Shown piece after piece: positions 13,858 to 31,553 of a stretch of 32,000 nucleotides of DNA; position 1 is the stretch's first letter; every line of letters begins with the position of its first letter. This DNA comes from Caldivirga maquilingensis IC-167 (GTDB lineage: Archaea; Thermoproteota; Thermoprotei; Thermoproteales; Thermocladiaceae). The stretch lies in the NCBI RefSeq assembly GCF_000018305.1, contig NC_009954.1, positions 2,010,001-2,042,000 of the forward strand. The letters are read 5' to 3'. The notes below the pieces were generated by a model, which was given only the letters and a program-made list of their open reading frames with translations, made no database searches and had not been told where the DNA came from. A program made the translations under genes and the position numbers.

Positions 13858-13948
13858 GGGCCCGTAGTCTAGCTTGGTTAGGATGCCCGCCTGACGATGC
13901 ATGGCATCAGATCGCGGGAGATCCCGGGTTCAAGTCCCGGCGGGCCCA
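13858..13948 (+). tRNA. tRNA-Val(GAC): tRNA-Val (anticodon GAC) with a 16-nt intron at the canonical 37/38 position
   Basis: The acceptor pairs GGGCCCG with CGGGCCC, and the discriminator is A. The anticodon stem pairs CCCGC with GCGGG, in a loop CUGACG[intron 13897-13912]C. The T arm is CCGGG-UUCAAGU-CCCGG. No CCA is encoded. Confidence 0.9.
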
Positions 13949-13968
13949 CTATTTGGTTTAGAATAATG

Positions 13969-24901: not shown

Positions 24902-27900
24902 TTAATATATATTAGTGTATGTGGGTTCAATGTAAATAGCGGGTCTACCTGGTAGCGATAACCTAGCCCTATTGGCTGGGTCATTAATGGGCGCCACTGC
25001 ATCCTGTATGGTTACCTTAATGCCAAGCCTCCTCTCAATGTACGATTTGAAACTATGCATTACACTCATCTCCATATCCCTTGATAACTTAAACCTAGGT
25101 AACTTACCGTCAGCAATATCGTTAACAATCCTAGCAACCACCTCACCCTTACCCTTATACTTACTGGCCAGGTTCCTTATCACATCCTTAACAGCAATGC
25201 CCCTGTCCATCATTTCAATGGCTTCATTGAAAATATCGTAAACGTAATCAGGGGGGCCGACGTAAATGTTCACAGCCCCAACCTGACCCCTAACCCTAAT
25301 GACTTCCCTAATATCATCTATAAGCCTCTCAACCACCTTGAAGGCGTTCTCCACATCATCATTAATGTATTGCTGCTCCACCGTAGGCCACCTCTCAGTG
25401 GATACGTATGTTGACTTACCCATACTGTGCCAAATCTCCTCAGCCATATGCGGTGTAATCGGTTGCATCATCCTAACCCAAGCATCCAGAACCTTCCATA
25501 GCGTGTACCTCACCTCATCCTTAGGTAACTCATCCATCAACGTCATGTATACCCTCACTGCATCATATAGGTTGAAGAATACCATTAATGCAAATTGCCT
25601 AATCCTCATCTCCTCAAGGGCCTTAGCACCCTCAGTAATAGTCCTATTTAGGATGCTTAACAGCCATTTAGTGGGTATTGTTGGGTTACTGGGTTCCTTA
25701 GTTTCCTCACCCATGCTTACTATGACTTGAGCCGTATTCCAAATATCCATTAACCTACTAAGCACTGTATCAACCTCGTCACTCCTCCAATCCATTACAT
25801 TATCCAAGTCCGCCGAGTAGGAGACGTATAGTCTCACTAAGTCTGGTGAATACTGTTCAACAGCCTCCTTAAGGTAAATGACGTTGCCTAGGGACTTACT
25901 CATCCTCCTCCCCTCCCTAATTACGTAGTTGTTCACGGATATTGCCCTGGGCCAGTGCCTTTCAGGGAATATTGCGGCGTGATGGGCTATGAAGAAGCTT
26001 AGGTGATTTGATATTAAATCTATACCACTATGCCTTTGATCAACAGGGTACCAGTACTCGAATTCAGCCCTAATACCCTCAATAATGCTTTTATCAACAC
26101 CCAGTGATTTAGCGATGGTCTCAGGGTCTCCTTGACCTAGGAATACGTAATCATAGAAGCTCACTAATTTATTTAAGGCAATTGAATCCTCAGCCTTAGT
26201 TTCAATAACCCTCTTAGCCAACTCACCCAACTTAACGGCTAACCCGGTTTCATTAAGTTTATGGGCTATTGTGTAGAAGGCCATGTAGATTGTTGAGTCG
26301 CTTAACGATTCAATAACCCAATCAGGATCCCACGGCATCCTGGTGCCTAATCCCCTCTTCCTGGCGCAGGGCCTCATGTTTAACCAATCTAGGGTCGCCT
26401 TGAAGTTTTGCCTATACTCCTCAGGTATTATCTTCATGTTATCAAGGGCCTTAAGCATTAGGCTTTTCCAAGTTGGGTCACCGAAGTTAAGGAACCATTG
26501 ATCCTTAATCACCGCCACAATAACCCTTGAACCACCCCTAGTGTACACTCTCCTAGGCTCAATCTCATACATAACGTCTAATAATCCCCTACCCCTCAAC
26601 TCCTCCGTTACCTTAACCCTAGCATCATTAACCTTAACACCGTTGAATGGGGTATTATCACCCATGACTCCATTATAGTACTCCTCCCTGTACACTATGC
26701 TGGTTGCCTCATCTAACCTCTCCCTATCATTCTGGTTCTTAACATTCAGCTTCTCAATAACATCCCTAGCCGGGTACTTGCTGAATCCAGGTAATTTAAT
26801 TATGCTTATTGGCTCAATTGCCTTAACAATACTCTCAATACCGTACCTCCTGAGTAATTCATCATTACTCTTCAAGTCCATTAACGCTGCGTAATCATAG
26901 GGTGCATGTGCAGGAACACTGTACACAACCCCAGTGGCTGTGTCATCGTCAACGAAGGAAGCTGGCAGTATGGGTAACTTAACCCCTATTGGGCTTTCAA
27001 CAAACTTACCCACAAGTTCACTACCCTTAAACTCCCTCAGAACCTTAACATCCTTATCCTGGTACTGAAGCTTCCATGCAGCGGCCTTTGAAATAATCCA
27101 CCTCTCCCCATTAACAATAGCCTCAACGTAAATTGAATCTGGGTTAACCCAAACATTGGTTGCCCCATATATTGTCTCAGGCCTTAGGGTTGCGGCTACT
27201 AGGTATGAGTCATTTAACTTAAACTTCAGTAGATTAAACTGCAGTATGTCTATTTTTAACTCATCCCCACCCCTAATGTCATGTTCACCCACTGCCTGAT
27301 TCTCATCAGGTGCGTAGAGGACTTGATGACGCCCCCTCACTAAGTAGCCCTTTGAGGCTAATTTAACGTACTGCCAGATTATGAAGGAGCTGTAATGTGG
27401 GTCACCTGTCATGAATATTCTCCTGAAATCCATTGAGTAGCCTATTGACTTAAAGTCATTAATGTACGTACCCTTGAAGAAGTTAACAATGTTCCAAGGA
27501 TCCTTAAAGCCATTGACTATTTCACTTGCCTTAACAGGATCCTTAACATACATGTTAACCTCCCTTCTCAACCTATTCTCATACTCCACATCCCCCTTAC
27601 TTAACCTATCCGCAACGGCCTGAATGGGTGTACCAGTTATGTGGAATGCTATTGGGAATAACACGTTGTAACCCATCATTCTCTTAAACCTGGCCACGAC
27701 ATCACCCACGGTGAATGTTCTACCGTGACCCATGTGGGGTGGACCCTCTATGTACGGGTAAGGCACAGTTATGAAGAATTTAGGCCTTGAATTACTTGGA
27801 TTAGCATTGAATACCCCATTACTATACCATTCCTCCTGCCACTTCTCAGCTATTTTAGTAAGCTCCTTAACGAACTCTTCTTTACTTGAGAAGAAACCGC

Positions 27901-27912
27901 ATCAGGGCCCAT
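24902..27912 (-). CDS. leuS: Leucyl-tRNA synthetase with an irregular 5' end: the conserved N-terminal 45 codons have no in-frame start
   Basis: Motifs present: HIGH-type PHMGH, KMSKS-type RMSKS, and editing-domain TLRPETIYGATNVWVNP. The track ORF starts at the GTG at 27766 (VPYPY...), but the frame is open up to 27901 and encodes FFSSKEEFVKELTKIAEKWQEEWYSNGVFNANPSNSRPKFFIT. The upstream ATGs at 27912 and 27902 are in the other two frames. Confidence 0.88.
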
Positions 27913-27924
27913 AATTTAAGTGAG

Positions 27925-27932
27925 TATTTAAG
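27925..27932 (-). promoter_or_regulatory. TATA-box-like element for leuS
   Basis: On the minus strand CTTAAATA begins 30 nt before the ATG at 27902 and 20 nt before the ATG at 27912. A second AT-rich box, AATTAAAG, begins 28 nt before 27912. Confidence 0.45.
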
Positions 27933-28049
27933 CTTTAATTCAGCATTAAGCCGGCGTATAACTTATTCTTAGCGTTGAATTCCCATGCAGTGTTCGAGGA
28001 TGTGGTTTAAATCCATGGGACTCTCATAATGTTTACGTAATTCAAATGC

Positions 28050-28736
28050 CTAGGCACCTATGTTTATGCTACTTCTCTTACCCATCTTACTCATATTAAC
28101 TATGTCATTAACCGTGAGGTTTGGGTAATATCTCCTTATGAACCAGAAGGAGTTCACTATGGGGTAATTGTAGGTTCCATCATCCTCCCTTAAATCCACT
28201 TCACCAATCCTCCATAGGTATGATAAGTAGTTTGAGTATATTTTCCTAGCCTCCACCATCTCTAATGCCGCTGGGAATTCATTAACAAACACTTGACCGG
28301 CTAGGTTTAAGTCCGTGCTTAACTTAATTAATATACCATTACTTAAGCCCTGCTTAACCACTGGGCATACTGTTGAGGCTGCGTACTTAACCTCGAAGTC
28401 TATCACCTTATTTAACCTATCAATGGAGTACCTTATTATCCTTGGTAAATATGGGTAGGCGCGGCAGGTTAAGGGCTTATACTTATTGTGGACTAGGCAC
28501 TTATTGTTACTTAGGAAGGGGCACTTATTATCATCGTCAAGGAGCATTAAGTACGATAGGGCTAAAATAACCTTGTTATTTAAATCAACCACAGTGTAAC
28601 CTGTCCTAAACTTAACTTCAACACCCAATTCCTCAGCCTCATCCTGTATTAAGTAGACTTCGTGGGGTAAAACTGTTACTGGACTTAGCCTACAGCATAG
28701 GCCGCAATTAGGCATGCATTTAAACACAAACGACAC
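28050..28736 (-). CDS. CxxxCxxCC-motif protein, paralogue-like to 12714-13175 (YkgJ/UPF0153-like)
   Basis: The N-terminus has KCMPNCGLCC, with later KCPF, KCLVH, TCRAYP and VCPV. It starts at a GTG. On the minus strand TATTTAAA (28759-28766) begins 30 nt upstream. Confidence 0.7.
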   Translation of the reverse strand: MSFVFKCMPNCGLCCRLSPVTVLPHEVYLIQDEAEELGVEVKFRTGYTVVDLNNKVILALSYLMLLDDDNKCPFLSNNKCLVHNKYKPLTCRAYPYLPRIIRYSIDRLNKVIDFEVKYAASTVCPVVKQGLSNGILIKLSTDLNLAGQVFVNEFPAALEMVEARKIYSNYLSYLWRIGEVDLREDDGTYNYPIVNSFWFIRRYYPNLTVNDIVNMSKMGKRSSINIGA

Positions 28737-31358: not shown

Positions 31359-31450
31359 GGGCCCGTAGTCTAGCTTGGTTAGGATGCCCGCCTCACGGGT
31401 GCTGCATCTGGGATCGCGGGAGATCCCGGGTTCGAGTCCCGGCGGGCCCA
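31359..31450 (+). tRNA. tRNA-Val(CAC): tRNA-Val (anticodon CAC) with a 17-nt intron at the canonical 37/38 position
   Basis: The exons are identical to the tRNA at 13858 except for anticodon base 34 (C vs G) and one T-loop base (G vs A). The loop is CUCACG[intron 31398-31414]C. Confidence 0.9.
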
Positions 31451-31553
31451 CTCATCATAGTGTTCTCAATAATGTTTTTAAGTTACTTAACCTTACCTTA
31501 CTGTGCCTCACGGTGTTTTATCAAGGTTACTTAACCCATTCATTAGGGGTGAG

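Follow-up and report, generated by a model that had tools for sequence, protein, structure and literature searches.

A probable +1 ribosomal frameshift at the third codon of leaderless leuS in Caldivirga maquilingensis and related archaea

Sites of the class UUU_Ynn are documented as prone to +1 frameshifting, examples being those of influenza A PA-X (UCC_UUU_CGU) and Yersinia YopN-TyeA (PMC5009743). The only programmed frameshift established by experiment in a cellular archaeal gene is that of Saccharolobus solfataricus fucA1 (PMC1616953, PMC8211752). A review of archaeal recoding from 2021 gives -1 frameshifting in fucA1 as the only established case for cellular genes, with no +1 case (PMC8211752). 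The large GeneTack survey mentions only a bacterial 'tRNA synthetase' cluster, which was classed as phase variation, and full-text literature searches returned no description of a frameshift in leuS or in any archaeal synthetase gene. No synthetase gene in any domain of life is known to require programmed frameshifting. The subject of this report is leuS, the gene for leucyl-tRNA synthetase (LeuRS), of Caldivirga maquilingensis IC-167. It lies in a stretch of 32,000 nucleotides (nt) of contig NC_009954.1 (positions 2,010,001 to 2,042,000), which is referred to as the window and has a G+C content of 43%. Coordinates are those of the window, and all leuS features are on the minus strand. Comparison with related sequences indicates that leuS of C. 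maquilingensis and its relatives is probably expressed by programmed +1 ribosomal frameshifting on a leaderless mRNA.

The LeuRS frame, an archaeal-type leucyl-tRNA synthetase open reading frame (ORF), occupies 24902-27901 and ends with a TAA stop at 24904-24902. Upstream it is closed by TGA 27904-27902, after which it continues as TGC GGT TTC TTC TCA AGT AAA GAA GAG TTC. The first ATG, GTG or TTG in this frame is the GTG at 27764..27766, which follows 45 start-less codons and lies within FFITVPYPY, where initiation would drop 45 conserved residues. All statements of the initial annotation on these sequences, namely the absence of ATG, GTG and TTG over 45 codons and the closure by TGA 27904-27902, were confirmed. 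In leuS 45 start-less codons follow the upstream stop, whereas the other long ORFs of the window (26 with leuS) have 0-20; leuS is an outlier, and its frame break is beyond chance.

A short leader ORF, ATG CGG TTT CTT CTC AAG TAA (27882..27902), overlaps this region and encodes MRFLLK, ending at the TAA at 27882..27884. With the leader as the 0 frame, LeuRS is in the +1 frame. The +1 coding sequence extends from TTC 27895-27893 to the TAA (24902..27895), and the predicted product, M-R-F-FSSKEEFVKELTKIAEKWQ..., has 999 amino acids (aa). This is a full-length match to archaeal-type LeuRS above the curated cut-offs, with 1224 bits against NF008957 (cut-off 677; residues 13-992) and 959 bits against TIGR00395 (cut-off 648.5). 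Alignment to the NCBIfam archaeal LeuRS profiles begins at residue 13-16 of the conceptual protein, and homology to human cytoplasmic LeuRS extends to residue 6; the part without a start codon is thus genuine LeuRS sequence. The nearest solved structure is that of P. horikoshii LeuRS (1wkb/1wz2).

The public gene model sidesteps the frame problem by a non-canonical ATA start at 27853 (codon 27851..27853), and its product, P0071 (983 aa), corresponds to the conceptual protein from codon 18 onward with M placed before it. In exact protein look-ups the GTG-start and MRFF-start forms of LeuRS were absent and the ATA-start model was present instead; a homologue search with a 300-aa query returned short partial proteins only. 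Across the Caldivirga relatives codon 17 is ATA, ATG or GTG. It aligns with the conserved Ile/Val of the IExKWQ motif elsewhere, and therefore appears to be a regular hydrophobic position of the protein, not an initiation codon. The leuS gene models in these genomes are probably wrong at the N-terminus, with ATA or truncated GTG, TTG or ATG starts.

The frame break was compared in 13 sequences of 7 lineages, the window and 12 others, taken from independent isolate, metagenome-assembled genome, JGI, ENA and Logan assemblies. Sequences other than the window carry L numbers. A scan of species-representative genomes yielded Caldivirga sp. UBA161 (L001, 94% aa identity), 'Thermoproteus sp. CP80' (L002, 81%) and Caldivirga RSNS23 (L006, 85%), all of which have the frame break of the window and an identical 22 nt, TGATGCGGTTTCTTCTCAAGTA. 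A metagenome scan added L076 (90%) and L077-L080 (83%), and further contigs were fetched via gene calls in the protein database. The set consists of Caldivirga (the window, L001, L076, L157 and L002/L006/L077-L080), L156, Thermocladium (L158, L159/L160 and L164/L165), L166, L169 and L161. Vulcanisaeta is represented by one DNA sequence, L169, from the complete genome of V. moutnovskia (CP002529). A quick and crude neighbour-joining tree placed Caldivirga and L156 as sister to Thermocladium, with Vulcanisaeta and L166 nearby and L161 elsewhere. More distant Thermoproteota have ordinary in-frame leuS starts (e.g. L003-L005, L049, L081-L083 and L093).

The leader reads ATG CGG TTT CTT CTC AAG TAA in the window, L001 and L076, and the same with TAG as the stop in L002, L006 and L077-L080. 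It reads ATG CAG TTT CTT CTC AAG TAA in L157 (Logan, 81%) and ATG AAG TTT CTT CTC GGA TAA in L156 (ENA, 68% aa identity). The three Thermocladium lineages share ATG AGC TTT CTA TAA, and L166, the sister of Vulcanisaeta, has ATG AAT TTT CTC TAG. V. moutnovskia has ATG GAT TTT CTC AGG AAG TGA, and L161, a singleton lineage with 53% identity, has ATG GTC TTT CTC GAG CAG GGA TGA. A common layout is found in 13/13 sequences: a TATA box 29-30 nt 5' of the leader, Y-G-AUG NNN UUU CUN, a stop within 0-3 codons, and LeuRS in the +1 frame, which is open from the UUUC site onward. The comparison of orthologue 5' ends, which the initial annotation had named as a check, thus gave the same frame layout in 12 other sequences.

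Alignment at the ATG leaves only AUG and UUUCU invariant, all positions between and after them being variable. The leader has 4-7 sense codons, its second codon is CGG, CAG, AAG, AGC, AAU, GAU or GUC according to lineage, and its stop (TAA, TAG or TGA) comes 0-3 codons after the Leu codon in all lineages. UUUC always spans codon 3 and the base that opens codon 4. In the 0 frame Phe is encoded throughout by UUU, the minor codon; UUC accounts for 76% of the Phe codons in the window. The overlapping second codon of the +1 frame always ends in U (GGU, AGU, GCU, AUU or UCU), though it specifies Gly, Ser, Ala or Ile by lineage. In an alignment of four Caldivirga lineages the first 20 nt of the leader (ATG..GTA) are invariant and form, with the preceding TG, a run of 22 nt (27883-27904). 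The 19 nt of this run that fall within the aligned gene are the longest invariant run in its first 1977 nt, and the leader is the sole 6-codon stretch with all third positions invariant (1/654). Conservation of the shift site exceeds what protein coding needs, and the site has been kept through saturating synonymous divergence.

The putative leuS promoter contains the BRE/TATA element (transcription factor B recognition element and TATA box) AAAGCTTAAATA at 27925..27936. It is identical in all sequences of the Caldivirga clade and in V. moutnovskia, being present literally in Caldivirga, L156 and Vulcanisaeta. The TATA box CTTAAATA begins at 27932, 30 nt before ATG 27902, and lies 29-30 nt before the leader ATG in every lineage. 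The initial annotation had equated this spacing with that of other leaderless genes, and the comparison holds within the window: a TATA-like box is found 27-32 nt 5' of the start codon in most other genes, and most genes of the window are therefore leaderless or nearly so. The TG dinucleotide at 27903..27904 is a probable initiator element, with a pyrimidine at -2 and G at -1 in 13/13 sequences. From these features we infer that transcription starts at G-1 or at AUG 27902 and that the leuS mRNA is leaderless.

An upstream ATG at 27910..27912 opens 20 codons to a TAG in the third frame and lies ~20 nt from the start of the TATA box. It is probably upstream of the transcription start and outside the mechanism. 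Its frame relative to the leader differs among the window, L001, L076 and L002, and it is absent or shifted in relatives. The earlier suggestion of a -1 shift from ATG 27912 was accordingly abandoned, as that ATG changes frame or is missing outside the window. A second TATA-like box, CTTAAATT, was observed at 27913-27920 (-), 12 nt 3' of the conserved box and adjoining ATG 27912, and in V. moutnovskia another A/T box, TTATTAAAAA, lies past the TATA box and before the leader. An additional downstream transcription start is possible. A bacterial promoter and terminator scan returned nothing; scans of this type are not relevant to archaea.

The proposed mechanism is as follows. Transcription from the AAAGCTTAAATA promoter would begin at, or 1 nt before, AUG 27902, and the ribosome would start on the 5'-terminal AUG and then decode CGG and UUU. 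With Met-Arg-Phe-tRNA-Phe on UUU in the P site and CUU in the A site awaiting Leu-tRNA, tRNA-Phe (anticodon GAA) would slip by +1 at the proposed shift site U_UUC (27893..27896), re-pairing from UUU (27896-27894) to UUC (27895-27893). Translation would then proceed in the LeuRS frame and give M-R-F-F-S-S-K-E-E-F.... Ribosomes that did not slip would add Leu-Leu-Lys and meet the stop after six codons. A functional ORF with no start of its own, placed in the +1 frame of a short initiating ORF, is present in the window (45 codons) and in L161; some relatives depart from this in having downstream starts.

The position of the slip is narrowed by the shorter leaders. In Thermocladium and L166 the +1 frame is closed by a UGA overlapping the AUG (AUGA) and the 0 frame ends directly after the Leu codon, and a shift would therefore have to take place with codon 2, 3 or 4 in the P site. 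In these leaders UUUC is the only position that allows the P-site tRNA to re-pair in the +1 frame. The sole P-site tRNA able to do so in all lineages is tRNA-Phe, from UUU to UUC, and UUC is the Watson-Crick cognate of tRNA-Phe(GAA) and pairs better than UUU. A shift-prone site permitting P-site re-pairing in the +1 frame is thus present throughout the set. The initial annotation had offered, as an example, slippage of tRNA-Phe from UUU to UUC at CGG-UUU-C giving MRFFSSKEEF, and this is the site singled out by the invariant UUUCU of the 13 sequences. UUU is fixed as codon 3, 6-7 nt from the putative 5' end, which suggests that the missing upstream mRNA contacts are part of the signal. The sequences establish the frame layout, its conservation, purifying selection on both parts and which slippery site is the only conserved one; leaderless initiation at AUG 27902 and the slip itself are proposals drawn from them.

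The gene downstream of the site is under strong constraint. The ratio of nonsynonymous to synonymous divergence (dN/dS) of leuS is 0.06-0.09, with dS up to 1.4-1.8 (window or L001 versus L002). The ORF is intact over ~1000 codons in every full-length copy, and no further stop or frameshift was found in any lineage; neither relaxed selection nor the additional disruptions expected of a pseudogene or decaying paralogue were seen. Within the Caldivirga clade, ten codons separate the leader stop from codon 17. Their numbers of variable sites (of 10) at positions 1, 2 and 3 are 2, 5 and 7, and the synonymous fraction over the same codons is 0.44 in the LeuRS frame versus 0.22 and 0.15 in the other frames. 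In Thermocladium, the codons after the leader have 1, 2 and 5 of 7 sites variable, with a synonymous fraction of 0.50 in the LeuRS frame versus 0 and 0. The start-less residues SKEEFVKELTKI align with the N-termini of LeuRS proteins with normal starts, MGSISSAEEEFLKELRAI in L083 and MSKERFLELLREI in L005. The ATG used by annotators in two Thermocladium genomes is ATC in a third (L164). The coding signature, the homology to normal LeuRS N-termini and the unlikeness of codon 17 to a start point to translation, in the LeuRS frame, of the codons between the leader and the first possible start. This agrees with the initial proposal that translation begins upstream of GTG 27766.

The 0-frame codon that would compete with the slip is CTT (Leu) at 27891..27893, the proposed sensor, and is followed by a second Leu codon, CTC, at 27888-27890. 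Leader codon 4 is CUU, CUA or CUC, and thus Leu in 13/13 sequences, while the LeuRS frame gives Phe, Tyr or Ser at this place. All tRNA-Leu is charged by LeuRS, and decoding of the A-site codon is dependent on the product of the gene itself. The fifth invariant base, U11, is dispensable for the slip and makes the A-site codon CUN, that is, Leu. The chance of its conservation across about five deep lineages, with neighbouring positions saturated, was put at ~0.01, as an estimate and not as a computed test.

Because the codon competing with the slip is always Leu and its decoding depends on the encoded enzyme, a feedback is proposed. Low LeuRS activity would lower the supply of Leu-tRNA, lengthen the pause on UUU, and give more slippage and more LeuRS; with abundant Leu-tRNA, ribosomes would proceed to the nearby leader stop. 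Given that frameshifting occurs, a negative feedback through Leu-tRNA supply, of the kind known from bacterial prfB, is judged slightly more probable than its absence. More tentatively, UUU_CUN may be a natural 'hungry codon' sensor in which the slip at codon 3 is both sensor and effector, a reading to which we give somewhat less than even weight. The Caldivirga leader also contains a possible second slip, CUU_C with CUC in the A site, of the same kind as in prfB.

Several observations weigh against programmed frameshifting or against leucine sensing. CUU is not rare in the window (21 per 1000), so that efficient shifting would require either a shortage of Leu-tRNA or a contribution from the nearby 5' end. 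A conserved downstream RNA structure was not found, and the predicted 5' hairpin is not significant (single-sequence z-scores -0.3 to -1.9). The case for frameshifting is built from sequence comparison, and that for leucine sensing depends largely on a single invariant base (U11) together with the fact that the gene encodes LeuRS. L161 is represented by one contig, and its nearest relative found has <=59% identity. In several lineages a canonical in-frame start lies 3' of the leader, where an upstream ORF (uORF) followed by separate initiation is possible. In Vulcanisaeta this start is an ATG that follows the Shine-Dalgarno-like AGGAAGUGA, Thermocladium has ATG or TTG, and some Caldivirga have GTG or ATG as codon 17. 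Concerning structure, RNAalifold predicted a hairpin at mRNA nt 3-33 (27870-27900, minus strand) in which the pyrimidine-rich leader (GCGG UUUCUUCU) is paired to the purine-rich codons downstream of it, the stop codon lying in the loop. It was rejected as a stimulator, since its variation consists only of U opposite purines, with no true compensatory changes. Rfam gave no match in 27600-28100.

These downstream starts lead to an explanation in which the short ORF (M-X-F-L...) is an independent regulatory uORF and LeuRS is initiated further on, at ATA 27853 in the window and at GTG, ATG or TTG in relatives, with no frameshift at all. Such an arrangement is considered improbable, though it has several points in its favour. 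The public model P0071 begins at ATA 27853, and the equivalent codon is ATG in L076 and GTG in L002, L006, L157 and L156. Vulcanisaeta L169 has an annotated in-frame ATG 1 nt past the leader stop TGA (980-1005), preceded by the Shine-Dalgarno-like AGGAAGTGA, which resembles the crenarchaeal Shine-Dalgarno consensus GGAGGTGA, and Thermocladium has an ATG or TTG 17-20 nt past the leader stop. However, the window and L001 would need to initiate at ATA, and in L161 no codon before VPYPY could serve as a canonical start. The ATA position aligns with the conserved Ile/Val of IExKWQ in LeuRS genes that start further upstream, and the candidate ATG of Thermocladium is ATC in L164. Across the lineages the candidate starts vary in identity, position and distance from the leader stop, so that a conserved canonical start of the main ORF downstream of the leader was not found. 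A uORF would also leave unexplained the coding signature and N-terminal homology upstream of the candidate starts, as well as the invariant UUU (never UUC) with its following C, the constant +1 relation and the frame that is open from UUUC. Vulcanisaeta may combine frameshifting with re-initiation of the coupled type or may no longer require the shift, and a mixed mode, with both routes in use, is possible in some lineages.

A +1 shift elsewhere in the leader is very unlikely. It might occur directly after initiation, where CGG is very rare and out-of-frame binding of Gly-tRNA to GGU is conceivable in the manner of Ty3, or at the stop in the manner of antizyme or Euplotes. CGG is the second rarest codon of the window (4/9235) and GGU the commonest Gly codon, a 0-frame stop is kept near the site in all lineages, and the outgroup L083 begins MGSISS..., which is compatible with M-G-F-F-S-S. 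Against this, CGG is not conserved, being replaced by CAG (L157), AAG (L156), AGC (Thermocladium), AAU (L166), GAU (Vulcanisaeta) and GUC (L161); with codon 2 free to vary in this way, rare CGG was dropped as a trigger. The codon before the stop varies as well (AAG, GGA, CUA or CUC), and none of these can re-pair in the +1 frame. The invariant UUUCU is explained by neither variant. Still less probable is a special tRNA reading four bases (e.g. UUUC), or loss of the extra base from the RNA through editing, transcriptional slippage or a mini-intron. Unusual tRNA genes do occur in these archaea, and ARAGORN reports a tRNA with a four-base anticodon at 13858-13949. Its anticodon 'gacg' would, however, read CGUC and not the leader, and the 92-nt tRNA resembles an intron-containing tRNA-Val(GAC). 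The T run has only 3 nt, which does not suffice for polymerase slippage, an intron cannot be accommodated given the homology to LeuRS N-termini, and no Rfam element is present in the region searched. Of the three explanations offered at first, programmed frameshifting is the one favoured by the comparative data. A sequencing or assembly error, a strain-specific indel or decay of a second leuS copy can be set aside as having a negligible probability: the same break occurs in the 12 other sequences from independent projects and platforms, and the ~1000-codon ORF is intact with the low dN/dS given above. In addition, the best 120 LeuRS matches include no second protein of the same genome, which is weak evidence against a second copy.

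Other frame breaks and irregular starts were observed at leuS in more distant lineages. L162 (1260-1300) and L163 (1180-1220; ENA ERZ27248328 and ERZ27227320; P0102/P0108; 46-48% identity to LeuRS of the window) have no canonical start before TVPYPY. A Shine-Dalgarno-like GAGG is followed there by ATG GGG GAT (CGC or TAT) ATT CTA TAC ... stop, with LeuRS in the +1 frame (G ATC GCA TTC TAT ACT); the slip in these two sequences is likely GGG_G or possibly AUU_C with the Leu codon CUA in the A site. In L167 and L168 (~1000-1200; JGI 3300010332 and 3300022552; P0123) the LeuRS frame has no ATG, GTG or TTG until past the HIGH motif. Two candidate routes were noted, a start-stop GGAGGG ATG TGA with LeuRS in the +1 frame, and GTG ATA TTG TTG ... 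GGC GTT TTT TAG, where a U6 run would permit a possible -1 shift into CGT TTT TTA GAG TTT CTC. The leuS of L153 (1487-1513; OGCG01003862.1, 44% identity, single contig) likewise has no canonical in-frame start. Downstream of a TTTATAAT box, at a distance of 27 nt, is a leaderless ATG GTG ACG AGT TAT CTC ATC AAA TGA; LeuRS is in its +1 frame, and AAA_UGA is a possible slip. Frame breaks of different design in other crenarchaeal lineages suggest that selection has reached such a solution more than once.

Some further observations concern neighbouring features. L003 (1110-1115) and L049 (3000-3005) carry a start-stop ATG TAG 4 nt 5' of the leuS ATG (ATG TAG actg ATG), maybe by chance, and their leuS product begins MSEFLK... 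at an ordinary in-frame start. In Thermocladium (L158, L159 and L164, ~1300-1470) leuS is divergent from a prolyl-tRNA synthetase gene, whose 5' end is ~95-165 nt from the leader. The tRNA at 13858-13949 (+) is listed by ARAGORN as a 92-nt 'tRNA-???' (gacg); by eye it resembles a tRNA-Val(GAC) with a ~16-nt intron beside the anticodon, and it is unrelated to the leader. ARAGORN also lists a 93-nt tRNA-Val(CAC) at 31359-31451 (+).

In a hyperthermophile family comprising Caldivirga, Thermocladium, Vulcanisaeta and relatives, synthesis of an essential housekeeping enzyme seems to require that the ribosome slip by +1 at codon 3. If the sensor reading is true, leuS would be without known precedent as an autoregulatory frameshift at a sense codon, as programmed +1 frameshifting in a cellular gene of an archaeon, and as a means of regulating an archaeal synthetase. 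The site would also show that a shift is workable 6 nt from the 5' end of a leaderless mRNA, which bears on how frame is kept before any upstream mRNA or E-site context exists. If the Leu codon is the sensor, the leader would be the sense-codon counterpart of RF2 autoregulation and a compact means of matching synthetase level to the demand for charged tRNA. What is likely to be new is that +1 frameshifting of a regulatory type, at codon 3 and on an archaeal mRNA without a leader, is combined with an essential synthetase as its product and a cognate sense codon as its putative sensor. What is already known is the UUU_Y class of +1 shift sites, to which the site belongs, and the logic, which resembles that of prfB.

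Bacterial prfB, which encodes RF2 and shifts at CUU_UGA_C, likewise has a short 5' ORF0 with the main ORF in the +1 frame, a single P-site tRNA that slips one base forward and a shift site conserved across many genera. In both genes the product itself aids decoding of the 0-frame A-site codon that competes with the slip, the resulting feedback being putative for leuS. Unlike prfB, where the A-site codon is a stop, leuS has a sense codon (Leu, CUN) there. The slip would be made by tRNA-Phe on UUU_C and not by tRNA-Leu on CUU_U, and at codon 3 as opposed to codon 26, in an archaeal host. A Shine-Dalgarno stimulator is impossible in leuS, the site being 6 nt from the leaderless 5' end. The features of the prfB family (a Shine-Dalgarno-like stimulator, CUU_U and UGA) are absent from leuS, whose site would work like prfB but is not a member of that family.

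The leaders of the E. coli pheST (pheM) and leu operons contain a very short ORF with cognate codons, and the speed of the ribosome on them is thought to set expression. The leuS leader is similar in placing a very short ORF with codons for the cognate amino acid upstream of the gene. The E. coli leaders differ in using transcription attenuation, alternative hairpins and a separately initiated main ORF, whereas in leuS the leader and the main ORF overlap, the latter in the +1 frame, and structures of the terminator or antiterminator type were not found there.

With influenza A PA-X and the other members of the UUU_Ynn class (E. coli argI and Yersinia YopN-TyeA), leuS shares the tetranucleotide and, if it slips as proposed, the shift of tRNA-Phe from UUU to UUC (PMC5009743). 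As in PA-X, the slip would compete with decoding of the next 0-frame sense codon (PMC5009743). In PA-X, however, the A-site codon is a rare Arg codon and the shift gives a low-level second product; in leuS the codon is a common Leu codon and the shifted product, an essential enzyme, would be the only functional one. Like leuS, fucA1 is a crenarchaeal cellular gene split over two frames in which a frameshift is needed for the full-length enzyme. It differs in that the shift is -1, takes place mid-gene on a heptamer of the type A_AAA_AAT and concerns a non-essential gene of a single species, whereas the shift proposed for leuS is +1, falls at codon 3 of a gene that is essential, and is conserved in several genera.

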